A stretch of 64,000 nt of DNA. Origin: Vermamoeba vermiformis. Taxonomy: Eukaryota. Where the stretch lies: the NCBI GenBank assembly GCA_045837725.1, contig JBEWZL010000101.1, positions 248,001 to 312,000 of the forward strand, read 5' to 3'. Below the pieces are notes generated by a model. The model did not search any database. It was not told the DNA's origin and was given only the letters and a program-made list of their open reading frames with translations. Position numbers and translations under genes: made by a program. Below, one piece after another: positions 2,705 to 62,235 of this stretch. How positions within the stretch are numbered: position 1 is the first letter of the stretch; every line of letters begins with the position of its first letter.

Positions 2705-3543
2705 ATGAAGCTATCCACGAAGCTACTCTTTGTATTCTCAATTGCCATGTCGCAAGCACTCAAAACCACTATTTTACCAGCAGATCGCCCTTCAGCGGCT
2801 GTCATTTTCCTTCACGGACTCGGCGGAACTGGAGCAAATTACGAAAGCTTAATTAGACCATTATCACCTATGCTACCACACGTCAAATTCATTCTGCCAC
2901 AAGCGTAAGTCAAGCGATCTTCTGAAAAAATTGAAAATTTTCTGACGCAACATTATTCGACAGACCTGTGAGACACATGACTATCTATAATAGCAAAGTT
3001 CCATCGTGGTACGATATTAAGGGCTTCAGTATTGACCATTTGGAGGACGAAGAAGGCATTAAGGAAAGTGCCAAAAAAAGTAAGAATTCTCGGGGTCTGC
3101 AATTATTGAACTATTAATAACTAATTATCCTGGTAGTTCACGACATAATCGAGGGTGAAATTAAGAAGGGCTTACCTTCAGATAGAATTATTGTTGCCGG
3201 AGGCAGTCAAGGTGGGGCGGTGGCCTTGTACGCAGGTCTAACCTACGACAAGCCATTGGCTGGCATTGTGGCCGTCAGCACTTATCTTCCTCTGCATAAG
3301 AACTTCCCTGCCGCACTATCAGATGCGAACAAAGCCACGCCCGTGTTGATGTGCCACGGCGACGCAGACAACGTTGTGCGACCAGAGTGGGGCAAGATGT
3401 CGTACGAAATTCTCAACAAGGTCCACTCCAACATCAAATTCAAGTCGTATCCTGGCGTTGGTCACCAAATTTCATTTGACATTATTGGTGACGTTGTTGG
3501 ATTCGTTGCTAAATACGCAAAGGCAAATTCGCAACAATCATAA
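2705..3543 (+). CDS. Acyl-protein thioesterase / lysophospholipase (3 exons)
   Basis: AAVIFLHGLG, PSWYDI, nucleophile GGSQGG, HGDADNVV and GVGH catalytic His. In-frame ATGs at 2705 and 2747. Confidence 0.9.
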
Positions 3544-23204: not shown

Positions 23205-25090
23205 TTAAGACCGTTGCACCCACGGCAAATCAGAGTCATCGTATTTTACAAGTGTTTTTGGGAATGGCAAGTACAAACTGCCCAAAAACCGCTCATTGGC
23301 TCGTGGATCTACTTCAACATTCTCATCTGTATTAGTAGCAGTATTATTATTAGGGCTATTATTATTGTTGTTGTTATTGTTATTCTCGGTAATGTTGTTC
23401 AACAAAGGATGTTTGACAAAGAGCACGCCCAACTCGAAGTTTTTGACGTTGAATTGACGTTTGTTCATTTGGAAAGAACCCCAAGCCGATTGTGATAGAT
23501 TAGCAGTGCCTATTAGATCAATATTAGACGGTATTTTCATATGAATACAAGTGTGCTGCAGATGTGCAGTGTCGAAAAGTACCTGCGTAACACCAGCCAG
23601 ATCCGTCAGAAAATTCCTTCAAAAATATCTTTGAATGCAGCAACAGCCCTGGATACCGCTCATCATTCGAGTCGTACAGATAATCATCGACAAAGTGTGA
23701 CTCGTCCAGCCAATAGAAGTACCAGCCATGAGGTCCGCCGTATTGTGACGCGTGCACGGTGTTCATGCTCGGAAACACAACTTTGAGACCTAACCGCCGT
23801 GTCGCTGGGTCTTGTGTGATGTGAAAATTGGTGCAAATGTCGCTAAACCAACGCGGGACTAGTGACCCGACATTACTCGTTTGGATCAGCACATCTCGTT
23901 GCTCTACGGTAGTAATACAATATTAGCTAATGTCAGCAAGTATACTTAATCATTATATTCAAGATAATGCTTAATTTCCGAGCCAGGGTTGAAAATGAGA
24001 TTAAAATGTCATTTTGACACTTGTTGACACGTACCATTGGGCCACTGAAAAGAATTCAACAAATAACGCATTTGCAGCTGTCCGCATTCATGAAACGCGT
24101 CTTCATTATCAATGTTGTACGAGCCAGGCACCGAGGACACTAAGAACACTTTGGCCCGTGAATAATCGTACTCGTCCAAGAAACTAATGTCCTGTCGCAC
24201 TTCCAATGCGCGCACGAATGCCTTGAGATCTCGCTGAAATTTCTTTGCAACTTTTTCTTTGGTCCACGGCGGCAGAATCTCCGCTGCATCTTCCCCTTGT
24301 TGATCGATATTTGCAGACTCTGACGATGATTTTTCCTTTTTAGGAAAGTCTTGGTACCAAAAGTTCTCGGTCATGCCGTCCCAGTCCATAAACTTCAAAT
24401 TGGCGCTGCTGATCACGACGCGCAAATGCGTGGTGTATTGTAACAGCCACAGCGCTGCGTGCATGCTGCCTGGATCCGGTCAAAAACAACATTAGCGCTA
24501 TTTAATACCCTAATATTATAGGTACTATGTTATTATGATATTACGTACCGTACATTCGCCTTGGATAGTGCATGACAGTGGCACGCATGTTGTTGAACGG
24601 ATGTGACTCGGGCACGTGCAGTCTGCTCTTCACAGGACAGACTAAATCAATGGGAATAGTTCCAGGAAAATATTTCACGATAAAGTCGAGGTCGTAGAGT
24701 TGCGTTGTGAGAAAGGCGTAGATCAACTCTGATTTTGTCGTCTTATTTGTCTCTCTGTAAAATTAATCGCATATTTTGTTAAAAACATATTTTGTTACTA
24801 TTAATATGGCATTTTAATCACTTGTATCGCGTAGAAAGGTGGATCGCGATATAAAAATTTAGGAAATTATTTAGAAATTCACAAGATGGCTGACTATGCT
24901 ATTTGAATATATTGTACTGATATCTTCAAACTTACGGATTATTTAGACCAGTTAGATCTGCAATATCAACTCCATAACGTGGATCTTGAAATGAATCGGG
25001 TACTTTATTGAATACGAGCCTCTCGCCTTCATAATCAAGCTCGATATTAACAGGCACTGTTACTTTCTCCTCTGGTGTATCTTTTTCCAT
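23205..25090 (-). CDS. Tyrosyl-DNA phosphodiesterase 1-like (PLD superfamily); first HxK motif reads HAA
   Basis: LRVVISSANL, ENFWYQDFP, YDYSRAKVFLVSSVPG, LHSKI, GTANLSQSAWG, NFELGVL and terminal LPW. Confidence 0.85.
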
Positions 25091-34742: not shown

Positions 34743-37700
34743 ATGGATACTGACACGTAAGCCTGTTTTTGTCAATCGTTTTATATGGCAGCCATTAAAA
34801 TGCGTTTTTAGGGATGAGATAATAGTATTTCGGCCCATTGTTTGCTTTTGCGAGAAGGAGTGCTGCAATAAAGCCGGTAGAGCCGAGCGCTACAAAAATA
34901 TTAGCGAAGTTTCGGTTGGTGCTGACTTCGAGGAATGCTGCGATGAATCGCAGCCTATTTGTCGACAAGACTGCTGCACAATTGAAGATGGCGGCGCTCC
35001 CCAACTGGGTTTCTTTAATAAGTAAGTTAAATAGATGCAATTTCTTATCTAATCCACGGGAATTTCAGGTTGCTGGTGACTCCCTCCTATTCGTCGGGCA
35101 ACCAAGAAACAAATAAAAGCGCAGAAGAAATCTTGACCGTTGCCCCGAAAGAAAGACTAGTGCCCGCGAAAGAAGAGAAAAAGCAATTCCATGAAGAATC
35201 GGATCACTCAGATGGGGACTCGTGCTGCAAGCCAAAGAACAGGCATCCCTCTCATAGTGAATCGGATCACCTACACGATGAATCGGACGAAGATTCTTGC
35301 TGCAAACCAAAGAAGAAACACAACGAGGACCATTCACACGGTGAATCGGATTCGGACTCCTGCTGCAAGCCAAAGAAGGGTCAAGAGCACCATTCCCATA
35401 GCGAATCAGACGAGGACTCCTGCTGTAAGCCAAAGAAGGGTCAAGCGCACCATTCCCACAGCGAGCCGGATCACTCAGATGAGGACTCTTGTTGCAAGCC
35501 CAAGAGAAAGAAGAAGCATCACTCTCATAGTGAATCAGATCACCTACACGATGAATCGGACGAAGATTCTTGCTGCAAGCCAAAGAAGAAACACAACGAG
35601 GACCATTCACACGGTGAATCGGATTCGGACTCTTGCTGCAAGTCAAAGAAGGGTCAAGAGCACCATTCCCACAGCGAGTCAGACGAGGACTCTTGTTGTA
35701 AGCCAAAGAAGGAGCGGCATCCCTCTCACAGCGAGCCGGATCACTCAGATGAGGACTCTTGTTGCAAGCCCAAGAGCAAGAAGAAGCATCACTCTCACAG
35801 TGACGACGATTCCTGCTGCGACTCTAGACGCGAGCCTAAAATGAAACTTGTTCCTCTTCCCCCTGTAAGTCTAGCGATCAGTTCCCGCATGGATGTGTTC
35901 TCACCACCGCTTTAGGATCCGGATGTGGGTGACGCTGGTAAGAAAGGCTGTTTCCCAAAGTCCAAAAAAGGCAAGAAAAAGGCGCAACAGAGTGACACGA
36001 TCATCAATCTGGACGTTGTCCAAGAGAGCGACAAGTCGAAGGTTGAGCAAAGGAATTTTCGTTCGGGATCTATTTTCTAACTCTGCCGCAGATGCTCATG
36101 TCTGTTACTGGCATGACTTGCACGAGCTGCGCGAAGACCGTCGAGGACCATTTGAAGAAACTCTCAGGTATTCTATCCGTTCAAATTAGCGTCACCACCG
36201 CCAAGGTTGAAGTGTCCTACCACAACCAGATCCTGACCGAGCAAGTTATCCTTGACCACGTGAACACGCTTTCATTCAAAGCTGAGCTCGTGGCTGCGGC
36301 ATTGGCGACGTACATCGAGGTCATCTTGGCGAACAAGGAGCAACACAGCGAGATGGAGGCATTCCTCAAAGCTCTGGAAGGCGTTAACGGCGTCCAATCA
36401 GGAGCGTTGCAAAAGCGAAAGGTCGTCAAGGAGGGGCACACGCGGACAGAATTGGTGGTCTCTTTTGTAATCGACTACGATCCTGACCGTACTGGCGCCA
36501 GGACTATCGGTCACGCACTTGGATCCGCTTTTCCGGACGCTTCTGTTGAGCACAAGAGACCCGAGGACAACTTCCAGAAAGGAATGAAAAAAGAAGTACG
36601 AGGCTGGTTGAATCGCTTGATTGCTGTCGGTGCCCTCACTCTGCCGGTCATCATCTTTGCGTTTGTTTTGCCTTCGATTGCTACTTCGAAGGAGGCAATC
36701 GACACCATAGTCTACAACGGTAATAGCAAGAAAAAATCGTGCAAATGTACATTACATATGACTCAGTTCTTATTGACAGGTTTAACCGTGAAAATCGTGG
36801 TGGAGTTTTTCTTGACCGCTCCGATCCAATTCTTCTTTGCTTTGCCGTTTTATAAGGTATTGAGAAGATATATACGGCATCAAATCGATGTACAAATATT
36901 TAACGGTTTTGTGCCAGTCGGCCTATGAATCGCTCAAGTACGTGGGTCGCGCTAACATGGATCTATTGGTGTGCCTAAGTACCACTGCTGCCTTCGTGTA
37001 CAGCCTCGTGATTAGCATCATCCTACTTGTCGACCCATCGTTAGTTAGCGGTAATTGATACTAAAAAATATTATAGTAGTGCTAGTTTTTTAGTAACTGT
37101 TGAACGACGACTAAAACTTTGTGTTTAAGGCGAAACTTTCTACGAAACGAGTGCGATATTGTTGTTTTTGATCATCCTCGGAAGATTCATCGAAGTGTAC
37201 GTCAACAGCAAGACCTCGAATATCTTGTCGCAGATTATGCTACTTCAAGCGGAAAACGCCGTTCTCGTCGGCAAATTTCCTCGCAGTCCCGTGCCGCCCA
37301 AAGACGTTCATAAATCGAAACACGCCAGGTATGTTTGGGTCCCTAATATTGACCTCGATAAAAGAAAAGTTACTAATACACTTTAAACAGTTCCTCTCAC
37401 AAAGGAAAGCACGGTGCAGAGCAAATGAAATCCTACGCTAACTTGGACGAGAGATCGATTAGCGTGTATCAAATTGAGCGTGGCGATGTACTTAAAGTCG
37501 TACCGGGCGATAAGATACCTACTGACGGTAAGGACTTGCGTGTTGCTGTTTGCTTCGCACTCGTACTTAAAAAATTATTCCAGGAATAATCGTTGAGGGA
37601 AAGTCCAGCATCAACGAGTCAATGTTGACAGGAGAATCGCGTCCTATATTCAAAACAGCCGGAGAAAGCGTTTACGGTACAATTCCTTATTACAATATTT

Positions 37701-45645: not shown

Positions 45646-47156
45646 CTATTCCACTTCGTCTTCACTGCTCTTGAAATTCTCGTCAAATTTGGTCTCGTTA
45701 GTGGCACCTTGAAGGTTTTGATACTCCGTGATCAAATCTTGCACATTGCACTGCGCTTCAGTGAGCTCCATTTCGTCGAGTCCGTCATTAGTGTAATGGA
45801 ACAAAAACGCTTTTCTTCGAAAAAGTGCCGTGAAATGCTGGTCTAACCGCTGCAGCACGTGAAGGATTGCAGTGCTGTTCGCGAGATACGTGCCTGACAT
45901 GTTCACACCTGGCGCCGCAGTGTCGCATCGAGTCCACTTGAGGTTGTCAGGGATCCACGTCGCGAACTTTGACGCGTACTTGTCACGTGTCAAATTGATC
46001 AGCTCGGCAATCTCCGCGGTCTGAATGGCCCCTCTGAACGAGCACATTGCTGCCAAGTGTTTCCAAGTGGTGTTTTCAGGGGCTGTTGACATCATCATAT
46101 TCTGCGGTTCAAACAGCTGCGATGAGATGTCAGCGAGTGTGACAGGTGTCATTGAGGTGCCATCGGATTGGTCAATTAATTCCGCAGTAATGGGTGCTGT
46201 ACCAACTGTCAAAAAGTGTTGTCGTCCGTACGGCAGGAGATTTGACGAGATTTTTCTGAGATTCATGGACTCGCTGCTAGGCAGTCTCATCGGACACGTG
46301 ATGTTGCTCATGATGTGCGCGGCGATATTGTTCAAGTGGTGGTACACCGGCTTGTTGATCCGATTGTTGAAACAGGCCTTGTACGCCATGTCATCGTCCA
46401 GGTAGACTACGACATCAGCGTTCTCGATCAGTTGCATCATGGACAGCATCACATTGTACGGTCGCACTACGCAGCTGTCACCAACAGTAGTCTCCGTGAC
46501 CGACCAAGTCCACATAATTTTGTCGGCAAACTCTTCACGTAGTCTCGATAAAAGCAGCGTGCCCATGCCAGAGCCGGTACCGCCACCAAGACTGTGCACG
46601 AATTGAAATCCTTGCAAAGATTCTGCGCGTTCAGCTTCCATGCGAACCACATCCAACAGTTGATTTATTATTTCTGGACCTTCAGTGTAGTGACCTTTAG
46701 GCCAACTATTTCCAGCGCCATATCCGTTAGGTGATGCCACTAAATTATCTCCACGATAAAATTTGGCGAGAGGACCCCCGCTAAGGTGGTTGATTGGGCT
46801 TGGATCTGAAAAAAATAGTTAGACGTTAAATTATTCATAATTTTTATTCAATAAAAATTCCAAGCAGCAATGAATTATAGTAAATATTTAATTTAATCAT
46901 GGGTACGCAAGAAACGCTTCTAATTAAATTAATTATTCTAATTTTTCTCACCTAAATCTGTGAAAATAGAACGCGGAACGTATTTATTATCTTCTTCTTC
47001 GTTGAAAAATACTTCCATATTTTCATTGGGTATATTTTTGCCAGGCAAATAATGTCCAGTCGAATCTAAAGCATGTTCTTGGCGCAAAAGTGACCAGAAT
47101 CTGTCACCAAGCATTACGCCACATTGACCGACTTGAATTTGAATTATTTCTCGCAT
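45646..47156 (-). CDS. Highly divergent beta-tubulin (2 exons)
   Basis: MREI, GQCG, YVPRS, GAGNSWPKGHYTEG, HSLGGGTGSGMGTLL, WIPDN, QHFTALFRRKAFL, EMELTEA and an acidic tail. Confidence 0.88.
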
Positions 47157-48838: not shown

Positions 48839-51705
48839 ATGAAGCGAGTAGTGCCTGAACCTATCGAAGCTACAGATTTACTCGTCAAGAAGTATTTCCC
48901 TGATCTTCATTTGACGCCACCTTTGGACGCTTGGAATCCAACGCCACGGACTTCAGCGCCAGTCTACTTTGCGATTTCGTTTAAGCACGGTAATAATTAT
49001 TATTTATTAAATTGGATTGATCTGTTAAATTTAATTGCTATTACTATTCGTGCAATAAATTTGCTAATTTTTGTAGATTTTTATTGAGCAACAGCAATTT
49101 AAGAACTAGACGACTAATAGTGAAAATTTAGACTATGAAGAAAAGTCTTATATTAGAGAAGTCGATAAAGCAGTGTTAGGCATCAGATCTTGGGGTGGTG
49201 AATTTGGCGAGGTAACTTCAGAAAGCTCCGCTTTTGGACCACGCTATCAACATTACCACGATGAATGTGGACATAAATACTGCGAGCAGCATGGCCGATA
49301 TATATTGCCGAAGAAAGGCTTTGGCCCGAAAAAAATGGCGGTGATTGATTGGAGAGGATCCAGCGCGTAAGAAAATAATTTATTTTTTGAAAATTTAACT
49401 GCTTTTGTTAGCTCCTAATATCATAGTAGCCGGTCCTATAAGCAAATTATTATTGGCTAAAAAAATTAAGAAAATTGGCTCGAGCAGATCTGTTCTGTGG
49501 TTACCCTTCATTATTCGCTTATGATATTAATTATTATTAATAAGCAATATATTCTAAATCATATTATATTTAGTGAGGTAGTCAAGAGATACAACGAATG
49601 GTTTGAAAACAATTTGGATCTGCCATTGACGCTTAATTCTCCAAAAACACCTCGTTATGCCACACTAGTCATCAGTCGCTTATATTTCGTGCGCGGAATA
49701 AAACAGCAATTTATTTTTCCGCGAGGATGCATGTGCTATGAAGATCAAGAATTGTACGGGAACGCGAAGCACCAAATTAACGCCGGATTTTATAATAATC
49801 CATTGCAGGTATGATATTAATTCCCTTACTATATTTAGTCTATATTATCGCTGAACAATTATTCAATCAAATTGCTTCTTCGATGGATCAAGATCCGATC
49901 AGTTTTTTTTTTAAATATTTTTATCATTTTAACTGCATTTTAAAGCGTCACTAATTACATATACTTTATTAATTATAGGAAGATGGTTACGCGGTGTATT
50001 ATAACAAAGGCTTTGCGATTGTTCTGCCGAGCAACAAATTTTTGAACAGCGAATTGTTGTGGGCACGTGTGTGGAAAGAAGAGCAAATTGAAACTAGCAA
50101 AAATATGAATATGACGAGTGGGTGGAGCGATATTAGATATGACACTAAGGTAAGCTTTACAAGATCGCTTTCACTGGATCCAGATCCAAATCCGTCAAAA
50201 TTTTATCTCCTTGGAAGCGATTAATATGCCTCATAATCATATACTTAATATGCATTAATATAATTAATCAATTTTTAATATGAGTTCTGTTAAATACAGA
50301 TGACTGAAGAAAATATCGTCCGGTATCAATTTTTGCAGGTCTTGGCCACGCTATCAGAACTCAATAATAAGGTACTTAAATATACTCCATAAATATATTA
50401 TTAACTATATTATATGTAATAACACTATAATATTGTCATTATGTAGGTCCCCGGAGTTTCAAAAGAATTATCCAAGTCAGATCTGTTCACGAGATTTCAT
50501 CGCTACAACGCAGTTAATAACATCAAAGACATGTTCCCCCGTGCAGCGCGGAGACTAAGAGCGACTAAATATGTGTGGCACATGATCGGAAATGTCTTGA
50601 AAATGAAGTTGAGTGGCAAGTGGGAGAAAAAATCGTTGTGGATCGGGAGTTTGCCTCAAAATTTCAACGAAAATACCATTAATGAGTACGTTAATATTTA
50701 TGAACATTACTAATATGAAAACTATTCATTATCCAAATCTAGATCCGGATACAAAATAAGATCCGATAAAAAAATCCTTTTCTTGCTAAAAAACGTTCAA
50801 ATTCCAAAAATATTATTATAATATATATTACAATTATTAGATATATTATTATAATCTATCAATAATTGTTGTTCACAGTTACATCTCACCGTACATAATG
50901 CGAAAGTTGCGAAATTTCCAGTTCTTGGCCGAGTCTCGCACGTGCTTTCTGAATTTCAATAGCTCTGAAGACTGCAAAGCTGCAATGAACGAATTAAATC
51001 ACCGTCCTCACGGCATGAAAGTTGAATTTGCGAAGAAAAAACAAAATAATCCAAAAAATTCCAAAAAAGGAAATAATCAGCATCAAATCGGCAAGTGCTT
51101 CCGATGCAATGTTAAAGGGCACAAAGAAGACGAGTGTTATTATACGAGATCGATATTGCCGATCGAGATCTGGTTCCAAATTTTGGAGTACATGAATTTA
51201 TCCCGATTAGGAAAGATGTCAAAAATCTGCAAATATTGGAACAACGTCGTGTTTAGATATTGGAAGACCATCGTACCACTAGCGCACATCGTAAGTTTTA
51301 TCAAATTTATTTCTCAGAATTTTTTTTATCGATGTTTGGGACCTACTTTGCACCGTTCTAACTTTTCCTAATATAGCATTCTTCTTACGCTATTACACCC
51401 TTACACGCTGCCACGTGGCTTGAAAACATCAAGCTAATTAAATTCTTAATCAATACTGGTCCAAGTGAGTGGCTGAACGCGCAAGATCAACTCGGACACA
51501 CCCCATTGCATTACGGTACGCGAACATTTCTCGGCCTATAATTCATACATTATTGACCGCCAATGAAATAGCTTATGCATTGCAAAACAATACTATCGCT
51601 AAGGAGTTGAAGTCACGTGGGTCCAAAGAGTACATTGTGGACAAAGAGGGCCACAGACCTGAAGCACTGAACGTCAAAGAAAAAGCATGCATCAGAGACC
51701 GATGA
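48839..51705 (+). CDS. Multidomain protein: unknown N-terminal domain + RRM + CCHC zinc knuckle + F-box + ankyrin repeats (multi-exon)
   Basis: RRM KSLWIGSLP...TCFLNF...MKVEFAK, knuckle CFRCNVKGHKEDEC, F-box LPIEIWFQILEYMNLSRLGKMSKICKYW, and ankyrin TPLHAA...NAQDQLGHTPLHYA. Continuity with the 5' exons is from manual splicing. Confidence 0.7.
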
Positions 51706-51782: not shown

Positions 51783-52745
51783 GATAGCTGTCAATAGGTC
51801 CTATAATTTGTAAGAGCCCTCGACGTAGCCATTGGTCTATACCCACCGACCTCCTCATCTAACGAGCTTATACTAGCCTGCAATAGCTGTCGATAGGTCC
51901 TATAATTTGTAAATTAAAAAATGTTTGTTGTTCAAAAAAGATAAAAAATAGCACGTATTGGTGCCATGAGGAGTACTTTGACAATCAATGCACGCCGTCT
52001 AAGATTATGATAGACTTCGGAACGCGGTAAGTCTTTAACAGCACCGACAACAAGATCACTGGGAAATGGAAGGGATCTCGCTTAATCCAGCGAAAGTAGC
52101 CGGAAACGTAACACCAAGCGGATAAAACATTCCAGCAGCAATAGGAATAATAAGGGAGCTCCATAAGAATGACACCCGACATTCAACCGTATTCGACGAT
52201 TGACCTAAAGACAGCTGCGTGGGCTAGTGGTGTACCTAATTTTGGTAGAAAACTTTTGATTTGTGGATGTTTGAAAGGGCGGAATAAAGCTACACGTGTC
52301 GCACGTGCTACCAATTCGAAGAACGGAATTCCACCAATCATTGCAAAAACGTTTCATTGCAGGATAGCCAATCATCTTGCGAAATTTCAATTTTGTGGGT
52401 ACAACAACAAAAGCAGAAAAAAGGTTTTGTTTTGTTCATAAAACAGAAATTTAATCCTAACAAGCACATCGATGGAATCACAAGTTGTTCAAGGTTCAGA
52501 CGGCCATATCTACCAGTACATTGCCGAAGGTCGCGGCAGCAACGGTACCATGTCCTACAGAGAGGTTGAAGATCTGTCTACTTATAATAGTGATATAATC
52601 TAGCTGCTTCGCTTGTACTGTTCGTTGTACTACATAAAGCTTATATCCTAAACTGTGTCTCACTTTTGATCAACCTCAAATAGTAAATAGTTGCCGTAAA
52701 CGTACTGTCGCGAGCTTTATCCGAGGTACGGGCTAGTTGGTTAGT
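51783..52745 (-). repeat. Inverted mosaic duplicate of 40360-41010 joined to the ATPase last exon/3' UTR and an orphan-gene 3' fragment
   Basis: Reverse complement of 52200-52730 matches about 40390-41010 (with a roughly 95-bp deletion). Reverse complement of 51815-52205 matches about 39800-40195. Confidence 0.88.
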
Positions 52746-52872
52746 CGGCCGGTATCAGAGTAGAAAATCCGTAAAAAGTTCTGTATTACATGTTTTATTA
52801 ACGAATATTAGGAAAAATAATTAAACCGTAAATAGATCCCCCATCTTCGGTTGTAACAAGGTCCCATCGGAT

Positions 52873-55800
52873 TTATCCTTCGCCACCATCAACGTCAGAT
52901 CGCTTGTTGCCTTGAGATAGTGCATGATGAGCTCCTCCAATTTCAGCTCCGCACTCGGGACAAGTAGATCTCTGCATCGCACCACCGCACTCACCGATCG
53001 TGTATAAATGACCATTAGGACACTTGTACCAGCCACCTAGTTCATATTTATAATGAGTACTGGGCCCTATTATGCATTATAAATGCGTACCTTTCTTGAT
53101 CTCGTGCGACATGGCCTTGACAATTTCTTTCATGCACTTCTCTTGGTTGCAGTTCTCGAGCATGTCTTTCGCTTCGTTGTGATTGGGATCAATAGCCAAG
53201 AGCTTCTGAAGGGCCACATTGGCCTCTACAAACTGTTGCAAGGCTAGAGAGGCTCGTGCAAGCTTCAACAAGACGTCGGTGTTGGTCGGATCCACTTCGA
53301 GTGCTTTTTGGAACAGCTTCTTGGCCTCGGTGTACTCGCGATTCTGATACTTCAACACACCTTCATTTGAAATGGTCGTTGCAATGACACGGGCTTTGAC
53401 GGCGTCAATGTCAGTCATGCGTCTTCTGATCTCTGGGAAATATCTCCGAGTCAGTTGAATGGGAGATCTGCACGTCGGACACTTCAGGTAGGCAATGTTC
53501 TTCTCTGAGGCTGTTTCCACTTGGACATAGTGATCGAACCCTTCCACGTCAAAAATGTGCTTGCAGTCCAGTTGAATGAATCTGAATAAAAATTAAGGTC
53601 AGATCTGGGTGCTCATGAAGACAGCAAAATTAGTTAATTCTATTGCAGCGGTAATTACTTACCTTGCGTCTTCGTCAGTCTCTTTCAATGAGCATTGCGT
53701 AATGTCATCGCGCCATTCACCGTCTATGTCGCACACTCTGCACATTTGAGGGCACTGTTCACCGCACAAGCCAATGCACGGGTGACGACACTTGAGCATC
53801 TTACGGCAAGGTTCATTGCAGCGAGGACGCGTGCAAATTTCTGAACAAGTCTTATCGCACTTGTGGTGCGTACACTTCCACACACACGGCTCTGAACACG
53901 GAATGCAAATGTCCGAGCACAGATCGCGGCACTTGCTGTGAACGCATTTGATCTCACATTTGCGTTTGCACGGTGCACATGACTTCTCGCACGTGTTTGA
54001 GCATGTGTGATTGCAGACCAAAGTCCTCTTGCAAGGTGCAGTGCATTTGACATGTCCATTTTTGCACTTTCCACACGTGCCTGCGCATTCGTGGCCGCAC
54101 TCTAATGTTGCTTTACAGGGCCTCTCGCACTCGATGGCATATGGATCGTGTTTCAGGTGACAGGCAACACTTTGCAAATGGTTGCAGGGCAATCGTACGT
54201 CCACCTTCTCATTGCAGTTTCTTGGGCATGGCTTACTGCAATCTGATTTGCATCTGTGTCCACACGGCAGGACTCGTGAGCACTTGTTCGTGCATATAAT
54301 TGGCACCTTGGACGCGTTGCACGGCACTGTCATCTCGTGGCCACAAGCTTCAAGTTTTACGGTGACGGGCTGCACGCATTCACCGCATTCTTCGTGACAC
54401 ATCTTGCCACAGTAATGGCCGCACGGGTCGTGCTTTCTTCGACACTGTTCGTAACAGACGTACTTGTCGTGTCCATCGGGGTGACAAAACTTTTTGCAGG
54501 AGTGGCCACAGTCCAACCTGTATTGACACGGAAGGGTGCAGCCGCCGTCACGCGCCTTTTCACGAATGTCGAGACCAGTTGACACCATGACGGAGTTTTC
54601 GGGGTGATTCTGACAACACAGTTTCATTGCAGGTCCAACACATCCGTTGACCATCATCAAGTAGATGATGTCTTGCCACAACTTGCTCTGTTGTTGCATC
54701 AACTCCGCATTTCCAATGATATAGAAGGCGTTGCGAGCACGTGAAAGTGCGACACAGACACGATTAGCAATTTTCAAGAAACCAATGTTGTTGTCTTTGT
54801 TGCTACGCACGAGTGACAAGATGATAATGTCGTTCTCTTCGCCTTGAAAGTTGTCAACTGATGACACTCTGATTGAAGAACAAGCTACACGGAGAAGATA
54901 TTAGCATAGGGAATTAATAAAGGATTCTATGTAACTTTACCTTCATTGTATTTCGCGTTTGCTTTAAGCTGCTCTTTGACGCGGAACAATTGTTGCAAGT
55001 ACATCGTGAGCACTGTAATCTTCTCGGGCTTGTAGCCTTGTTGCACGAGATACAAGCACAGATTGGCTGCTATCATTACCTCGTGGTCGTTGAACTTGCT
55101 TGAAGATTCAGCTGAAACCTTTTCGAGTACTTTGTGGTCCAAGAAGAACAAGTTCTTTTCGATGCCAAGCACCTTTTGAGGATGGTTGTGAACTGAAGGG
55201 TGGTCGTCTAATTGGTCGTAGATTGGGCTAATCAGCTGTGAAATTTCCGGTCTCATTCGACGTTGTGTTGACAGGCGTTTGAAGGGCACTTCATTCTTAG
55301 TCATGCGTTCAAACAACGACACGTCCAAGTTGTACTTCTTTGACAACGCGTACACTGCAGTAGATGGTCTGAGTTGTTGATGATCGCCAATCAGAATCAA
55401 GTGTTCTGTGTCTTTTGTCAGCGCTGTGATGATGTGTGCTTCGAGCACTTCTGCTGCTTCTTCAACGATCACAATCTTGGGCTTCAGTGCACGCAATAGG
55501 TCGACGTTCTTAGCGGCAGCAGTCGTGGTCATGCCGATCACTTTTGCTGCTCGGAGCTGTGCCATTGTTCTCGTGTTGTTCAGCTCTTTGAGCTCGCGGC
55601 ACTTGAGGTAGTACTCTTGCGACAACTCGGTCAATGCGTCGTTCAAGATGGATCGATTGTGCTTCAATACTCTGTCGTGAATGTCTCTTCTTACAGCGAT
55701 GTCAATGCCCCAGAGATTTTTGACTCCTCTTACCGACTGCAAGATGCGAGTCAGTTCCTGCTCATCGAGCTCGTCCACCCCTTCGACGGCCTGTACATTG

Positions 55801-58156
55801 AATACAGCTTCAGCTTGTCTCTGGCCTGGCTCTTGATACTCCTCTCGCTCGGCAAGCAGCTCCAACAACTCATCTTCATCGATATCGTCTGCAAGTTCTT
55901 CGTCGTCTTCGTCAAAATCATCGTCTTCAACAGCATTCTGATTTGCGTTCGCTCGTTGATTATTGCGGTTGTTATTGTTAGTTTGGGCCTTCTTGTTTGT
56001 TTTACTTTTCTTCTTCGTGGTGCCGTCGCTTAACCAAACTTGAACGAGCTTTCGATAGTTCACCTTCGCACCAGGTCCCGTGCTCAAAGACTTGATTTGA
56101 CTTGCTGAAAAAAGCTCTTGCAATAGCTCGATTTCGACGTACTCGGCGCTGATTTTCTTGGCGACATTGAGTATGGCGCCCTTCAACTTGTCAATTTGCT
56201 CTAGCAGTTCCTTGCGTTGCTTGTAGAACACGCCAGACATTTGCCATTGTTGGGCATACACGCTGCATTCTCTCTGCATGATCTCGCTCTTTGATCGTCC
56301 TCCCAAGCGAAGAATTTTCTTCTCAAACTGGTAGATTCCTTCGAGAAACTGATCGAGCGCGTGATTGGTGTAACATACGCAAAGAATCGGGACAGGCGCG
56401 TCGTTAGCCAGCATCAATTTGGCAGCTTGAAGACCAATGTACGTCTTGCCAGTGCCAGGCGGGCCTTGAACGATCGCGAGCTCCTTGGTGAGGACTTGCT
56501 TGAGTGCTGCCAGCTGACTGTCATCGACGCCTTCACCAAACGCTCTGGTTGAAGGCCATGCTCCAAGGAGATTCACGTGGCGCGTGAGAGTTCCTTTGAA
56601 AGCCGGAGTCATATCCCAAAAGTCTTTGCCCGAAGCTAAGTACTTGGGTGGAGCAATGACTTTGGAGTACTTCAGTAAGTAGTCCTGAAAGGGTACGTTA
56701 TCGCCCTTGGCTTGGAGTGCTCGCAAGACCGGGCCAAATGCCTCGAAGTATGCTGTCGAGGCTTCAATAATCGTGTAGACTTTGCCAGTGTTGAACTTTG
56801 GATCGTATCCGTTCACCAACTCGATCTCGATCTTGCCCTAATTTGACACGTGTAAGTACCGGTTTATTATGACGTGCAGCTCTGATGTTACCTTGGCTAA
56901 CATTTTCTCGTCTCTGTTTCCAACGACAGCCCAAAGCAAGTCCGAGGCAAAATCATCGCTTGAGAGGCACAACAATGACCCAGTCATGAGCCGTTTAGAT
57001 CTGGCCCAGTTGATCTTCGTATTGGCACCGATGTTCATTTGAAAGAATATTCCTTTTTCAGTCAAATGCGTGCCGACAACAGGCACATTCCAATAGATCT
57101 TGACACCATTCAAACGCTTGGTGTTAATCTCGCCTCGGTGAATGTAATAGACTGCCTTGCGAATGTCAGCAAAGCCGTCTTCGTGCAACAGTCGATAGTG
57201 CATGTCTAGGTAGTCATCGATATCAGCGTAGTGCTCGCCTTCAACTCTGTTCTTGCGGAGATGTTTCGCATCCGGATTGTTAAACATCTCTTCTTTGCTG
57301 GGAAACATTGGAATCTCACGGAAGTTTCCTGCAATGGATGTTAGTTCGTGCTACAATACTAAGATACGGAGATTATGGACAAACCTTTTGGTCCTCCGTC
57401 GTCTTTGGCTTGGGCAGCTTGTCTCTTTCTTTGTTCGAGCATGTGGTCCTTCTTCGCAACCAGCTTGGTTATCTCGAGAGCTAATTTCTCCTCTACGATA
57501 GCGGCAAGTGTTGCAAGATGTTGGATCAAAGGCAACACGTCGAAAATGGAATCGCGGGACAGATCGAGCAAGTGTCCGAGAAGTTTTACCACGAGCTGGA
57601 TGTAATGTGCTTTAAGACGCGCTCCATCAAGCAACATAAAGGTGCCGAGATTGTTGAGGAATTTAGAGGCCATGACCATTGAATAGAACGCTCCGCTGGT
57701 TGTTGATCGGATGTGGTCCATTAAATCAGGTGAAGCCAGTAACTCAAGCATTAACTCCACTATTTCAAGCTCTTGAAGTATCATTCTTTCGTTGAGGGCG
57801 TTCTTAAACTTCTTCTCTTCTCGACCAGTCAGATTTGACAAAGTTTGATCTGGATCGGCCGCGATTGTTTTTCTTAACCAAAATCTTAGCTCCCCAAAGG
57901 TCCATGGACGATCTTCATTTGGTTTTTCGTTGCGTTTGTGCTCCGTGTTATTCTTTTGTCCGCCGTGTTGAGTCAGATTCGGGCCACCAGCGTTGTTGTT
58001 ACGAGGGCGGGTATTATTGTTGGTATTCTGATTATTATTGCGGTTATTATTGTTCGCAAATCCATTACCACGACCAGATCCGCGTCCGCGACTTGAATTG
58101 TTGCCGCCTCTGGTAGCGTTAGGGTTTCTGAAACGAGGGTCGTTATTTTTTTCCAT
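52873..58156 (-). CDS. ZNFX1-like UPF1-family helicase with NFX1-type zinc fingers, RING-like domain, TPRs and C-terminal RZ finger (multi-exon)
   Basis: YLDMHYRLLHED, WARSKRLMTGSLLCLS, QGPPGTGKT, YTNHALDQFLE, EEAAEV, LIGDHQQLRP, VDNFQGEE, RVCVALSRAR, a long Cys/His finger array, CKHIF...CPTC, TPR (ALEVDPTN, LLAIDPNH) and last exon WYKCPNGHLYTIGECGGAMQRSTCPECGAEIGG. Confidence 0.92.
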
Positions 58157-58466
58157 CTTTATATAGTCAATGGATTGTGTTATGTGGTTTAAAGTGATAA
58201 GCAATTAAAAGTCAAATGTCAAAACGAAAGAATTATTTTAACCTGCCAACACGGCGTGTTCGGTGTTTTTCCGACACGTTGAAATTTCAATAAAAATCTG
58301 CATTCAATCGATTTGATTAGACTTACTTATTTCTGTGCATAACACCTCAGCTTCGAGTGGGCATAATTTACAAATTGAAGCGTGATCGAAAACTGAAAAG
58401 AATTAAAAAATTAATTAAGATCCAATTTGGGGCAAGTTACAAATATTACTTACTTTGATAGTCGAC

Positions 58467-61400
58467 TTAATTTGTGCATTTTTGCGCACAATTTCCACAT
58501 GATTCAAAGCAGATCTTCGTACATTGATGTCCACAGGGAAGTTTTCGTTGACAAGGTTCGTAGCAGATGTATTTGTCGTGACCATCAGGGTGACAGTTCT
58601 TCTTGCACTCGTGGCCACAGCTGAGTTTAGCGCCACACGGTAAAGTGCATCCGCCGTCCTTGGCCTTCTCTCGTATGTCAAGGCCCGTTTTGACGAGCAC
58701 GCTGTTCTCTCTGTGGTTCTGGCAGCACAACTTCAGCTCAGGTCCGATGTTCTCGTTGGCCCGTAACAATTGAATAACTTCGCGCCAGAGAGGGCTTTCT
58801 TGTTCGAGTAACTGGGCATTGCCGATCATATAGAAGGCATTGCGAGCACGTGAAAGTGCGACACAGACACGATTGGATATTTTCAAGAAACCAATGCTCT
58901 TCTTGTTGTTGCTGCGCACGAGCGACAAGATGATAATGTCGTTCTCTTCGCCTTGAAAGTTGTCAACTGATGACACTCTGATCGAGGAACAGCCTTCTCG
59001 AATCTTGTTGTTCTCTTTGAGCTGCTCTTTGATACGGAACAATTGTTGCAAGTACATCGTGAGGACTGTAATCTTCTCGGGCTGATAACCTTGTTGGATT
59101 AAATAAAGGCACAGATTGGCAACGAGTGACACCTCATGCTCGTTGATTTTGCTCGTCGAATCACCTACGGTCTGCTCGGACACGGTATGGTCGAGGAAAA
59201 ACACGTTCTTAGCCACCCCTCTAACAGTCCTAGGATGACCGTACACCGTTGGATGGTCGATCAGTTGTTTGTTGTAGATAGGTCCAATCAGCTGCGATAT
59301 CTCGGGTCGCATTCGGCGTTGTGTCAGAAGCTTGCGGTAGGGAACTTTGTTCTTGGTCATGCGTTCAAACAGCGACACATCCAAGTTGTACTTCTTTGAC
59401 AACGCGTACACTGCAGTCGACGGTCTGAGTTGTTGATGATCACCAATCAGAATCAAGTGTTCTGTGTCTTTTGTCAGTGCTGTGATGATGTGTGCTTCGA
59501 GCACTTCTGCTGCTTCTTCAACGATCACAATCTTGGGTTTCAATGCAGCCAACAGGTCGACGTTCTTGGCGGCTGCAGTCGTGGTCATGCCGATCACGTT
59601 GGCTTGTCTTAACAATGTCATGGTTCGGACGTGATTCAGCTCTTTCATCTTGCGACACAGACTGCTGTACTTCTCGTTCAGTCGTCTCATCTCTTCTTTC
59701 TGCTCAGTACGCTGCTCGTGCAACAAAAAGCTGTGAATCTGTCTTCGTGCATTCACGTCAATGTCCCATAAGTTGTCCACCTTGTACACGCGATTCATCA
59801 AGTCCGAGAACTGATCTTCGGTCAAGACGTCTTCCACTTCCTCAACTTGTTGCACGTTGAAAACAGCGTCCACGTTCTTGTTTTGTCGCTGTGCCAAGTC
59901 CGTGTCCTCTTCATCCTCTCGCTCGGCAAGTAACTCGCCCAACGCGTCTTCATCAATTTCATCGTCCAACTCTTCCTCGTCATCGATGTTTTCGGACTTG
60001 GTTTGAACTTCTTCGATCTTGACTGATGCAGGCACGGGCTTATCGCTTTTCTTTGTGTTGCTGGCGACTTGTTTGGTACTTCCTTTGGTGGCTTGCTGCT
60101 TCTTTTCCTCTTCTAGCCACTTCTTTAGAACTTGGCTCTGGTGCACGCCCTTGCCAGGGCCAGTCAACAGAGTGTCCACTTGTTCTGGATGGAATACCGT
60201 GTCCAGCACACCGAGGCTGATGTAAGACGCGCTTAATTTGTCCGCTACATCGAGGATCTTATTCTTCAAGTCTGCAATCTCGTCCAAGAGCTGATATCGT
60301 TGGATCATGATAGACTTGTCCACGTTCTTGTTCCAGTGGGGCGAGAATAAACTACATTGCTCGCGCATTAACTCGCTCTTAGATCTGCCTCCCAAACGAA
60401 TGATCTTCTTTTCAAACTCGTAAATTCCTTCTAAGAATTGATCGAGTGCATGATTGGTGTAGCACACGCACAGAATAGGCCTCGGTGATTTGTTCTCCAA
60501 CATCAGCTTGGCTGCTTGAAGACCTACATAAGTCTTGCCAGTGCCGGGTGGGCCTTGAACAATGGCGAACTCTTTGGTCAGGATTTGTTCGAGTGCTGCT
60601 AGCTGACTGGCATCAACCATAGGTCCTAACTCGCCTGGCTCAGGCCACGAACCGAGTACATGCATGCGCGGCTGTAAGGCACCAGGGAAAGCGGATGAGA
60701 CTGTCCACAAGTCATTGTTATTTGGCACGGCGTCACTGGTGAGGTACTTGGGAGGTCTAATAGTAGTACTGTAGCGCAGCAAATAATCTTGGAACGGCAA
60801 GTTGTCCTTCGTCTGTAAAGCTCTCAGCACGGGTCCAAATGCCTCAAAATAAGCTGCTGAGGCTTCTATGATCGTGTAGACTTTGCCGGTGTGAAAGTTT
60901 GGATCATAACCAGCTGTTAGCTCAATATCAAATTTGCCCTACAATTGTATCAGTGGTTAGAATCGAAATCATATATTGCTATTCGAATAACATACTTGGG
61001 CTAGCTTCTTTTCATCGCGATCAGCAACCGTTGCCCAAAGCAGATCTGAAGCGAAGTTGTCGCAAGACAAGCACAGCAATGAACCAGGCATCAATCGCTT
61101 CGACCGAGCCCAATTAATCTTGCTAGAGATTTGTATTTGATAGAATACACCTTTGAAGTCTAAGCGTGCACCCAACACGAGTGCGTTGTTGTAGATCTTG
61201 ACGCAAGTTAACCGCTTGTCCACAATTCCGTGGTGCAGGTTGTACACTGCTCGTCTGAGATCTGCAAATGCGTCTTCGTGAAGCAGTCTGAAGTGCATGT
61301 CGAGGTAGTCGTCAACACTGTCATAGTGCTCGCCTTCCACTTTGTTCTTACGCAGATCCTTCGCTACTGGACTAGCGAACATTTCTTCTTTACTCGGGAA

Positions 61401-62235
61401 TAGCGCGATGCGACGATAGTCTACGGGTAATAATATAATGATTAATTTTCTAAATTGTTGCGCTTTTAGTCTTCGTCTTACCACTGCTATTTTGCGTGTC
61501 TTTATTGTTCGCGAGATCCATCTGGCGCTGTTGTTGAAGGATGTAATCTTTTCTAATGATCAAGTTATCCAACTCATATAATACGCTATCTTCATAGAGG
61601 TCCTCGTTGGCGATGAAATACTCGATGAGCGGATCTACTTGAGTGATGGACTCGGGCTCTAATGTGAGCAAGTGAGAGAGCAGCTTGATAAGTCTCGTAG
61701 CATTCTCCGTATTCAGCCTGACGGAGGAGTAGCGTAGACGAGTTTCCAAATTAAGGAAGAACTTGGTCTCCAAGACTAGTTCGTACAAAGTCGCACTTGC
61801 AGTGGTCCGGATGTTGTCCATAATCTCGGGCAAAGAAAGGATTTGGATGACCATCAGCGGCATATCACCTCTCTCAAACACCACAGTGCCATCCAAGGCA
61901 CTACGAAATTTGTTTGCGTCTCTGCCGGTGAGATTCGAGAGGATTTGATCAGGATCTGACGCTAGAACTTTTCTTAGCCAAACAATTAATTGGCCAATAT
62001 TCCAAGCTACTTCTTCGCGTGGCTTATCTTGTCGTGGAGGAGGTCTACCACGTTGCGTGTCACCTCTGCTGGGATTCGATCGTCCTCGACCACCATTTGC
62101 TTCATTATTATTCGCTTGATATTCATTATTGCTATTATAATAATTGTCATTGCCGCGACCTCGTCCTCGACCTCTGTTGCCTCTTCCTCGACCAGATCCA
62201 CGCCCTCTGTTACTGCTTGGGCCGTCCTTCTCCAT
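58467..62235 (-). CDS. Second ZNFX1-like helicase, C-terminally short (ends after about two zinc-finger units; 3 exons)
   Basis: Same helicase motifs and first two intron positions as the neighbour, RG-rich N-terminus, and a stop after CGNCAQKCTN. Confidence 0.88.

Follow-up and report, generated by a model that had tools for sequence, protein, structure and literature searches.

A ZNFX1-family gene of Vermamoeba vermiformis with a TPR connector between its Miz-type domain and its RZ finger

Introduction

Human ZNFX1 is described, in the sections of a preprint on which we draw, as an RNA-activated ubiquitin ligase with two catalytic sites (bioRxiv 10.1101/2025.10.14.682297, sections 5, 6, 11, 12 and 16). 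The helicase is reported there to carry an EEAA Walker B motif and an auto-inhibitory acidic 'plug' helix (residues 828-836) in insertion 1C, the RING-like domain to be of the Miz type (section 12), and the N-terminal helix of the RZ finger to bind ubiquitin (section 11). According to the same source, the C-terminal 500 residues, including the helical bundle between Miz and RZ, were not resolved by cryo-EM; allosteric control by this bundle is put forward as a possibility, and a polymer-dependent control stimulated by ubiquitin chains is proposed for it. The preprint also relates the SF1 helicase of Schizosaccharomyces pombe Hrr1 to that of ZNFX1 and to its insertion (bioRxiv 10.1101/2025.10.14.682297).

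Two further proteins resemble parts of the gene presented here. RNF213 has the RZ finger (PF20173) in common with it, together with the zinc site, the Cys/His catalytic pair and the N-terminal ubiquitin-binding helix. For the rest, RNF213 is a very large RING-bearing AAA+ protein of the dynein-like type and is not known to have an SF1 helicase, NFX1 fingers or a TPR at the RZ-adjacent linker place. In CHIP/STUB1 a TPR lies beside a U-box, a RING-like E2-binding domain, where it docks chaperone tails; this TPR has three repeats with a chaperone-tail clamp and precedes the U-box, which is the reverse of the order found here, and the protein has neither helicase nor RZ finger. The likeness to CHIP/STUB1 is treated below as an analogy, with no claim of homology.

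Results and Discussion

Domain architecture

The window analysed is a stretch of 64,000 nucleotides of V. vermiformis DNA. From stop-to-stop frames and junction sequences we built on its minus strand a gene whose coding sequence of 4983 nt is in frame and has a single terminal stop, and whose stop and ATG coincide exactly with the limits 52873-58156 given by a first-pass annotation of this DNA.

52873..58156 (-): whole gene, six exons, five GT-AG introns, 1660 aa
58156-57385, 57328-56892, 56837-54941, 54884-53663, 53581-53091, 53036-52873 (-): exons 1-6
57329-57384, 56838-56891, 54885-54940, 53582-53662, 53037-53090 (-): introns 1-5, all GT-AG, of 56, 54, 56, 81 and 54 nt
57902..58156 (-): N/G/R-rich low-complexity N-terminus, aa 1-85, from the translation
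56892..57116 (-): ZNFX1 domain PF25396, running on into exon 3 (Pfam, E 1.5e-20)
54706..56528 (-): SF1 (UPF1-like) helicase core, AAA_11 and AAA_12, interrupted by intron 3 (Pfam)
56442-56465 (-): Walker A motif GPPGTGKT, aa 528
55833-55928 (-): acidic run in a long 1C-type insertion between Walker A and Walker B, aa 707-738
55449-55466 (-): deviant Walker B motif (V)EEAA(E), aa 861
53743..54618 (-): Cys/His-rich NFX1-type zinc-finger array (stalk), from composition and conserved columns
53395..53742 (-): RING-like / Miz-type domain, split by intron 4 (53582-53662), from conserved zinc residues
53191..53385 (-): two TPR repeats, aa 1509-1573 (Pfam, AlphaFold2, Foldseek)
53095..53178 (-): TPR capping helix running into the N-terminal (ubiquitin-binding) helix of the RZ finger, one helix in the exon-5 model (residues 135-162)
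52900..53034 (-): RZ finger PF20173 in the last exon (Pfam, E 3.4e-24)

Pfam searches were run on the exon translations. In exon 1 they gave a sub-threshold match only, and the helical region between aa 85 and the end of this exon has no Pfam family; it may be the equivalent of the armadillo-type dimerisation domain of human ZNFX1. The ZNFX1 domain scored 73.7 bits against a cut-off of 27, with profile positions 2-78 of 107 lying within exon 2, and the helicase matched AAA_11 at 2.5e-27 and AAA_12 at 5.8e-18 and 3.7e-21. The acidic run in the helicase insertion is possibly the counterpart of the human plug helix. The stalk has 58 Cys and 19 His within 319 aa and keeps all 66 of the Cys/His columns that are invariant among 52 typical homologues. 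The Pfam model zf-NF-X1 did not match this array at E <= 0.1, and it was likewise absent from the Pfam matches of 53 homologues scanned at E <= 0.001.

The Miz-type domain has a single zinc site (C1449, H1451, C1477, C1480); C6, H8, C34 and C37 of exon 5 (C-x-H ... C-x-x-C) are invariant across 32 aligned sequences, and the Miz segment was matched by 112 of the 150 representative homologues at E <= 1e-3. The zf-RING_2 model reached only E 0.055 on the RING-like segment, under its cut-off. In the human Miz-type domain the residue in contact with the E2 is F1575. In the RZ finger the zinc ligands are C1612, H1616, C1632 and C1635, with C1623 (52987-52989) as candidate nucleophile and H1644 (52924-52926) as candidate general base, judging from the sequence. 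Counted from C1612, the residues C1612, H1616, C1623, C1632, C1635 and H1644 fall at +0, +4, +11, +20, +23 and +32, a spacing identical to that of human C1849/H1853/C1860/C1869/C1872/H1881. Upstream of the finger, I1596 (53122-53124) lies in a helix that aligns to the conserved I-V-x-A helix of the homologues. The protein ends about 10-25 aa before most homologues and is without their conserved post-RZ tail.

When exon 4 was used as query, 1190 representatives were retrieved at E <= 1e-30; among the best 150, all of them ZNFX1-like, identity reaches 52%. Every one of the 87 columns invariant among the 52 typical homologues is kept. By sequence, then, this is a full-length member of the ZNFX1 family, and its Pfam domains stand in the order that the first-pass annotation had read from the letters: a ZNFX1-like helicase and E3 ligase with TPRs that follow the RING-like domain and precede an RZ finger, the latter borne out by both its profile score and the human spacing of its six residues. 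In human ZNFX1 the parts follow one another in the same way: ZNFX1 domain, SF1 helicase (with the EEAA Walker B and a long insertion that has an acidic stretch), NFX1 stalk, single-zinc Miz, helical connector and RZ. It differs in being longer (1918 aa against 1660 aa), in having the post-RZ tail and in the N-terminus, which is N/G/R-rich in the window protein.

Defence or small-RNA pathways

By analogy with human ZNFX1 alone, the gene might act in defence. A minority reading, doubtful but a serious one, is that the same molecule serves small-RNA or heterochromatin pathways, like fission-yeast Hrr1 and Caenorhabditis elegans ZNFX-1, and not defence against viruses or bacteria. Nothing in the window is specific to immunity, which suits that reading. 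Against it, the window protein keeps its RZ finger intact, whereas we know of no RZ finger in Hrr1 or in proteins of its type; the gene is also adjoined by a tandem, diverged, truncated paralogue, and turnover of this sort, being common in defence genes, hints weakly the same way. In the parts of the preprint that bear on this point, the helicase insertion has its nearest relative by sequence in Hrr1, and worm ZNFX1 is placed in RNAi, in favour of the small-RNA reading, and the worm protein is without an RZ finger (bioRxiv 10.1101/2025.10.14.682297).

The TPR connector and its place in the family

Where a typical ZNFX1 protein has a helical bundle between Miz and RZ, the window protein has two TPRs and a cap. 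The TPR-like repeats that had been placed at 53140-53380 are real: Pfam matched TPR_19 (1.8e-12, 47.9 bits), TPR_2 (7.2e-12, 44.9 bits) and TPR_1 (3.1e-08, 33.5 bits), all above the curated cut-offs, at exon-5 residues 66-144, that is, at about 53149-53385 of the window. An AlphaFold2 model of exon 5 (pLDDT 88.6) has helices at residues 48-79, 83-96, 101-113, 117-130 and 135-162, and its TPR part consists of four helices of 13-14 aa at pLDDT 97-98. Foldseek returned 59 PDB matches at E <= 0.001 for this model, with consensus and peptide-binding TPRs on top; the consensus TPR 1na0 superposes with an rmsd of 1.0 over 82 columns.

The same annotation had called the TPR inserted, which does not hold. 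The Miz-to-RZ linker is 102 aa long, whereas the linkers of 64 homologues measure 147-243 aa, with a median of 207, and because it is shorter than in all 64, the TPR replaces and shortens the usual helical linker and occupies its place. Nor does it match, in sequence or in predicted structure, the ordinary helical region of all ZNFX1 proteins, a possibility that had been raised against the reading: hhalign gave a probability of 3.6% between TPR-type and typical linkers, with just 11 columns aligned, in the RZ helix. The modelled helices differ as well. In a model of one typical homologue, P0053 (pLDDT 82.4), which and not the human protein stands here for the typical bundle, the linker helices are 19, 30, 10, 17, 27, 15, 29, 22 and 20 aa long, so that six of nine measure 19-30 aa as against 13-14 aa in the TPR hairpins. 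The special feature of this protein is its connector, a 102-aa TPR unit in place of a bundle of roughly 200 aa made mostly of long helices.

A TPR in this position had been noted as not known from animal ZNFX1; it is not unique to the window protein. Of 15 streptophyte-clade sequences, 10 gave Pfam TPR matches (E <= 1e-3) at the same place, between Miz and RZ, and there were none in the other five or in any of 38 other homologues. The TPR-bearing proteins come from Selaginella, Ginkgo, Adiantum, Cryptomeria, Ceratopteris and Calypogeia and carry the database name NFX1-type zinc finger-containing protein 1. The TPR-linker form is thus a variant shared with land-plant relatives and not a new sort of protein. 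Streptophyte ZNFX1 proteins, such as that of Selaginella moellendorffii (XP_024528675.1, P0018) and that of Mesotaenium, belong to the same family and clade as the window protein, and most of those scanned also have TPR matches between Miz and RZ. They differ from it in linker length (about 171-176 aa in three that were measured, which contain one more repeat and a loop rich in Ser and Pro), in the PB1 and CCCH zinc-finger domains that several have at the N-terminus and the window protein has not, and in the helicase-to-Miz core, where identity is at most 44%.

The connector was probably inherited by the window and streptophyte proteins from a shared ancestor. It is unlikely, to our mind, that the TPR arose independently in the two lineages as a convergent replacement of the linker. 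In BLASTP a fragment comprising the Miz tail and TPR gave colinear alignments to the orthologous position of P0154, at E 5.6e-8, and of P0162, P0037, P0018, P0159 and P0039 (E 2e-6 to 9e-6). The alignment with streptophyte proteins is colinear and free of gaps between the Miz tail and the end of the first TPR, and the last TPR hairpin and cap align with them and with P0183, both of which argue against convergence. So does an IQ-TREE LG+C20 tree with the window protein in an 18-sequence clade (SH-aLRT 99) that includes all 14 streptophyte-clade sequences present. The branching order within this clade is poorly supported (fork support 81), and FastTree gave another placement, pairing the window protein with P0010, a typical-linker protein. 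Several other observations speak for convergence. Proteins readily acquire TPR repeats; the TPR part is as similar in searches to unrelated TPR proteins (P0002, E 5.7e-10) as to those of plants; the other three non-plant members of the clade (P0101, P0007, P0183) gave no Pfam TPR match; and the plant linkers exceed that of the window protein by about 70 aa. A phmmer search with the TPR segment alone matched none of the 150 representatives, three plant-clade sequences among them, at E <= 1e-3.

Proposed mechanism and role of the connector

As a whole explanation, we consider it likely that this is a ZNFX1-family gene with helicase, stalk, Miz and RZ in which the TPR connector serves as a stiff spacer. 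Helicase activity, ligase activity, including ester-forming ubiquitylation, and activation by RNA would follow by analogy with the human protein. On that analogy, binding of RNA to the helicase would release auto-inhibition, and the C-terminal module would work as a ubiquitin ligase with two sites. The charged E2 would sit on the Miz domain, and from the E2 ubiquitin might pass straight to a substrate or first to C1623 of the RZ finger, with H1644 as general base. The TPR would be a short stiff spacer that sets how the E2 site and the RZ cysteine lie relative to each other. The model of the fragment has unbroken helices at both ends of the TPR, from the last helix of Miz into the first of the TPR and from the cap into the ubiquitin-binding helix of the RZ finger, which makes a spacer the most likely role of the TPR, although the exon-5 fragment is without the first Miz half and the RZ sandwich, so that this continuity may fail in the whole protein.

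That the TPR is instead a lineage-specific inserted adaptor, docking a partner or substrate onto the ligase in the manner of CHIP/STUB1, seems to us improbable. The repeats are canonical in sequence, and the model superposes on peptide-binding TPR domains, namely those of CHIP/STUB1 (4kbq, 8f14; rmsd 0.8 over 82 columns for CHIP/STUB1), Sgt2 and FKBP51/52, with rmsd 0.8-2.3. The TPR region is also the most divergent part between the window gene and a relative seen in the public runs X21 and X22, which would fit a partner-binding surface; at a likeness of at least 90% the read depth is zero in 53182-53375, as against 44-56 in 52988-53181 and 11-16 in 53376-53569. However, nothing was added, since all 64 homologues have a longer linker, and streptophyte proteins have the same kind of linker at the same place. 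Carboxylate-clamp TPR domains have three repeats, whereas here there are only two and a cap. In the first helix P0039 keeps a Gly-Asn where the window protein has Gly-Val, the Asn of this pair being a candidate for the carboxylate-clamp asparagine.

A bolder proposal, to which we likewise give little credence, is that the TPR connector marks a separate, ancient ZNFX1 branch in streptophytes, this organism and perhaps other protists. In such a branch the TPR would fix the distance from E2 to RZ, the relay would run in cis without the polymer-dependent control by ubiquitin chains, and the concave face would dock a lineage-specific partner or substrate.

The general picture of ZNFX1 is unchanged by this finding, and a role in immunity in this organism is conjectural. 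A literature search found no published description of the TPR-linker form of ZNFX1. RZ-bearing ZNFX1 proteins have at least two types of connector, the TPR type being present in land plants. With a connector cut down to about 100 well-predicted residues, the Miz-TPR-RZ part of the protein could make a compact unit of about 245 aa, which could aid crystallisation or assay of the passage of ubiquitin between the two sites.

Splicing and expression

All five introns appear as spliced joints in the public runs X1, X2, X21 and X22. Each of introns 1-4 is documented by one or two spliced contigs from X1 and X2, runs whose RNA label is a guess though their contigs are spliced. For the joint of the TPR exon to the RZ exon, 53034>53089, there are 36+38 reads in X21 and 42+45 reads in X22, and it occurs in one 261-nt contig of X1 with one differing letter per piece; the joint fits equally well with the cut two places on, which gives the intron 53037-53090. 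The last exon, which the open-reading-frame track had missed, is thus spliced to the TPR exon as had been supposed, the joint being present in three of the four runs. The raw reads are mostly 90-95% alike to the window gene (448 of 615 in X21, 523 of 695 in X22), so their source is a relative or paralogue and not the exact window gene.

The gene is intact and expressed. That the RZ frame is a chance open reading frame, a separate gene or a pseudogene, as the shortness of the last exon (164 nt) and its change of frame from exon 5 might suggest, can be dismissed given the RZ profile score, the refuting exon 5-exon 6 joint, and the presence of an RZ finger directly after the linker in every homologue of the same architecture. 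The neighbouring gene is a tandem paralogue, diverged and truncated.

Gene structure and expression

Using stop-to-stop reading frames and the sequence at the frame changes, we resolved the ZNFX1-like gene of the 52873-58204 region into six exons on the minus strand:

58156-57385, minus strand, exon 1
57328-56892, minus strand, exon 2
56837-54941, minus strand, exon 3
54884-53663, minus strand, exon 4
53581-53091, minus strand, exon 5 (TPR exon)
53036-52873, minus strand, exon 6 (RZ exon)

The five introns are all GT-AG (56, 54, 56, 81 and 54 nt), and the joined coding sequence of 4983 nt is in frame throughout with a single final stop, giving a protein of 1660 amino acids. The shortness of the introns and the compactness of the genes would suit a microbial eukaryote or a fungus. 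The limits of 52873 and 58156 proposed in the first-pass annotation are exactly the stop and start codons of this gene.

Splicing was checked by aligning four public sequencing runs to 52600-58400 of the window. The intron between exons 5 and 6 (53037-53090) is removed in three of the four, confirming the earlier proposal that the RZ exon is spliced onto the TPR exon. The joint is crossed by raw RNA reads in runs X21 (36 + 38 reads, starting at about 52 places) and X22 (42 + 45 reads, about 55 places), and in run X1 by a single 261-nt contig, one letter off the window on each side. Spliced contigs also span intron 4 (run X2), intron 3 (X1), and introns 1 and 2 (both X1 and X2). X1 and X2 are labelled as RNA by guess only; their contigs lack introns and so can hardly be genomic. 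Because the X21 and X22 reads are mostly 90-95% alike to the window (448 of 615 and 523 of 695, respectively), their source is a relative or a paralogue. The gene is real and expressed.

Domains of the encoded protein

A Pfam scan of the translations of the six exons identified the ZNFX1 domain (E 1.5e-20), AAA_11 (E 2.5e-27), AAA_12 (E 5.8e-18 and 3.7e-21) and the RZ-type zinc finger (E 3.4e-24). Residues 66-144 of exon 5 matched TPR_19 (1.8e-12), TPR_2 (7.2e-12) and TPR_1 (3.1e-08), all above the cut-offs. The RING-like segment gave a RING match below threshold (E 0.055); it has the pattern C-x-H ... C-x-x-C and is matched by 112 of 150 representative homologues at E <= 1e-3. In human ZNFX1 the corresponding element has been described as a U-box/RING hybrid of the Miz type; it has a single zinc site, engages E2 enzymes and can act as a ligase by itself (Randow-Modis preprint, bioRxiv 10.1101/2025.10.14.682297).

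Homologues were obtained by searching the exon-4 translation against 1.84 billion cluster representatives, which returned 13031 proteins at E <= 0.001, 1190 of them at E <= 1e-30. The best 150 of the 13031 are long ZNFX1-like proteins of at most 52% identity; local phmmer (E <= 1e-3) found both the Miz-like segment and the RZ finger in 64, the Miz-like segment only in 48, the RZ finger only in three, and neither in 35. When the spliced protein was aligned with 52 typical homologues, it was found to keep all 87 invariant columns, including 66 of 66 Cys/His. Within the RZ finger, C1612, H1616, C1623, C1632, C1635 and H1644 are spaced exactly as the zinc ligands and the catalytic pair are in human ZNFX1 (bioRxiv 10.1101/2025.10.14.682297), and I1596 aligns with the isoleucine of the RZ ubiquitin-binding helix. 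Walker B reads EEAA, as it does in human ZNFX1 (bioRxiv 10.1101/2025.10.14.682297). The product is thus a ZNFX1-family protein with nothing broken, as the ZNFX1, AAA_11/12 and RZ matches and the invariant columns bear out for the identity first proposed, and from its sequence it is predicted to be a helicase-ligase. Its C-terminus falls short of that of most homologues by about 10-25 residues (52873-52900, minus strand); animal, plant and protist relatives have a conserved tail after the RZ finger (Ala/Pro-Ala-Trp-Ser/Gly type), whereas this protein does not.

A TPR in place of the usual connector

The first-pass annotation had described TPRs inserted between the RING-like domain and the RZ finger. 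Their location holds, given the Pfam matches and the TPR hairpins of the model described below, but the insertion does not: the stretch between the Miz-like segment and the RZ finger measures 102 residues here, against 147-243 (median 207) in the 64 homologues with both domains. Neither sequence nor predicted structure aligns the TPR with an ordinary helical region of ZNFX1 proteins. None of the 150 representatives matched the TPR segment at E <= 1e-3 (phmmer), and when a profile of TPR-type linkers was compared with one of typical linkers, the probability was 3.6%, with only the last 11 columns, the RZ helix, aligning.

The structural comparison used a single model per linker type. The exon-5 fragment, rather than the full spliced protein, was folded with an alignment of 31 homologues (mean pLDDT 88.6; 97-98 over the repeats), with predicted helices at 48-79, 83-96, 101-113, 117-130 and 135-162. 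In this model two TPR hairpins are entered straight from the last Miz helix, and the capping helix leaves the TPR and continues into the ubiquitin-binding helix of the RZ finger. Foldseek against the PDB gave 59 matches at E <= 0.001. Consensus TPR designs rank highest (1na0, with an rmsd of 1.0 over 82 columns at 38% identity), and TPR domains from CHIP/STUB1, Sgt2 and FKBP51/52 are also among them. For a typical homologue, P0053, the model built with 51 relatives (pLDDT 82.4) shows a linker of nine helices (19, 30, 10, 17, 27, 15, 29, 22 and 20 residues), a predicted bundle of mostly long helices. The TPR is real, but it takes the place of the usual connector in a more compact form, and the main value of the protein would be to mechanistic work, as a natural and minimal Miz-connector-RZ module.

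A word-indexed search with exon 5 gave two matches among 465 candidates, both generic TPR and neither a ZNFX1 relative, in a collection apparently lacking this protein itself. Five loci found by scanning metagenome contigs with this exon aligned over the TPR part only (query residues 66-159, 33-38% identity) and look like ordinary TPR genes. The first Atlas look-alike of exon 5 was an archaeal 'TPR repeat/Ring finger' cluster (0.93), and the rest were generic TPR clusters.

The connector in streptophyte relatives

Pfam scans of 53 homologues (28 + 25) found TPR between Miz and RZ at E <= 1e-3 in ten: P0018 (Selaginella moellendorffii XP_024528675.1), P0037, P0039, P0081, P0153, P0154, P0155, P0156, P0158 and P0162. 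In five, namely P0037, P0155, P0156, P0158 and P0162, at least one TPR model exceeds its curated cut-off. All ten fall in one clade, whose named members are from Selaginella, Ginkgo, Adiantum, Cryptomeria, Ceratopteris, Calypogeia and Mesotaenium. By Pfam, five rows of this streptophyte clade gave no TPR match (P0157, P0159, P0160, P0161 and P0029), nor did any of the 38 rows outside it. A search using the last 310 residues of P0039 recovered twelve proteins at 92% coverage or more and E <= 2.4e-59, those with names coming only from plants or one streptophyte alga; below these the matches fall to E of about 1e-37 and are animal ZNFX1 proteins. The TPR connector is shared with streptophyte relatives, which public databases already carry as ZNFX1 proteins.

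BLASTP with the stretch that begins in the Miz tail and ends where the RZ finger starts gave colinear alignments, at the orthologous place, with P0154 (36% identity, E 5.6e-8) and five other plant proteins (E 2e-6 to 9e-6), while typical homologues aligned over the Miz tail only or not at all. The alignment suggests that the first repeat here corresponds to the plants' first repeat, and the second repeat and cap to their last repeat and cap; about 70 amino acids, comprising the middle repeat of the streptophyte proteins and a loop rich in Ser/Pro, are missing. The N-termini also differ: P0039, P0154, P0158, P0159, P0161 and P0162 of the streptophyte clade carry PB1 and/or CCCH zinc fingers before the ZNFX1 domain, whereas this protein has an N/G/R-rich low-complexity region where many proteins of that clade carry PB1/CCCH.

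A search within the text of the ZNFX1 preprint (bioRxiv 10.1101/2025.10.14.682297), whose supplementary conservation figure S3 might show non-animal sequences, and of the Nat Commun 2026 cryo-EM paper (PMC13710534) found no mention of TPR or plants, nor of fungi save fission-yeast HRR1 in the preprint. Among the matches listed for literature on ZNFX1 and tetratricopeptide, Arabidopsis, or the RZ finger and ubiquitin, no title or abstract opening concerns TPR in ZNFX1.

Origin and divergence of the connector

In a FastTree of 138 rows the neighbour of the protein is P0010, which comes from a EukProt transcriptome and has a typical linker, and the pair is sister to the streptophyte clade. IQ-TREE under a site-heterogeneous model (37 rows, 1082 columns) placed it in an 18-row clade (SH-aLRT 99) with all 14 streptophyte-clade rows and the long-branch P0101, P0007 and P0183, the last from Pygsuia biforma; P0010 lies outside. 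We set aside the pairing with P0010 in favour of the site-heterogeneous tree. Because the two trees disagree, the position of the protein is not firm, and the branching order inside the 18-row clade has a support of only 81. The site-heterogeneous tree is compatible with a single origin of the connector. Unrelated TPR proteins score as well as plant proteins against the TPR part, and so the connector may instead be convergent in this protein and in streptophytes. We consider common descent the probable explanation.

The relative sampled by X21 and X22 has the same layout, since its loose read ends, translated by hand, give the beginning of an RZ finger where exons 5 and 6 meet and, at 53169, a D-P-x-N-x-E-A motif resembling that which closes the second TPR here. 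At 90% likeness or more, its read depth is zero over the TPR (53182-53375, minus strand), whereas the flanking bins 52988-53181 and 53376-53569 have depths of 44-56 and 11-16, respectively. By this measure the TPR changes fastest within the gene's 3' end, and it evolves faster than the catalytic domains.

Probable mechanism and role of the TPR

By analogy with human ZNFX1, RNA would push an acidic plug out of the helicase groove, and ATP hydrolysis and ligase activity would then turn on. The protein has an acidic run at residues 707-738, a candidate counterpart of the human plug. The Miz domain would hold the charged E2, and ubiquitin would pass to the target directly, or to the RZ cysteine first in an RBR-like relay. 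We infer every one of these steps from the human protein, the conservation of the parts being what is observed here. The TPR would most likely serve as a short stiff spacer that holds the two catalytic sites in a fixed position to each other. It could otherwise dock a partner, as the TPR of CHIP does; this is less likely because there are just two repeats, with Val where P0039 has the Gly-Asn of the first helix. Biologically, the protein may serve defence or small-RNA pathways.

Neighbouring genes

Directly upstream of the gene lies a tandem paralogue:

58467-62235, minus strand, tandem paralogue

It has the same N-terminal layout, a ZNFX1 domain (7e-21) and a helicase (AAA_12 3.7e-46), with 78-91% nucleotide identity to the ZNFX1-like gene over the helicase. 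Its frame stops at 58467, after just two or three zinc fingers and without Miz, TPR or RZ, and its nucleotide likeness to the ZNFX1-like gene stops near 58816. The paralogue appears to be a partial duplication. Intron 3 (54885-54940 in the ZNFX1-like gene) is missing from the paralogue, since the frame 58467-60938 is unbroken across the corresponding site at 58991-59015 (minus strand).

Further features were identified in the window:

684-1439, minus strand, ATP-dependent DNA ligase exon (1.1e-56)
3121-3543, plus strand, phospholipase/carboxylesterase exon (1.5e-31)
15841-16278, plus strand, NXF1-type LRR exon (2.7e-15)
24009-24479, minus strand, tyrosyl-DNA phosphodiesterase exon (5.5e-21)
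36047-36928, plus strand, heavy-metal-associated domain exon (6e-11)
45646-46818, minus strand, open frame of 390 aa with Tubulin and Tubulin_C domains
50841-51541, plus strand, F-box frame (1.3e-06), then ankyrin-repeat-like frames

The first five are ordinary eukaryotic housekeeping, and the F-box frame follows shortly after the 3' end of the ZNFX1-like gene, on the opposite strand. The tubulin-like frame is about 42-47% identical to named beta-tubulins of all eukaryotic groups, 63-65% identical to metagenome proteins of 305-339 aa (two of three labelled tubulin beta), and 96% identical to one unnamed 390-aa protein; its product appears to be a divergent tubulin paralogue.
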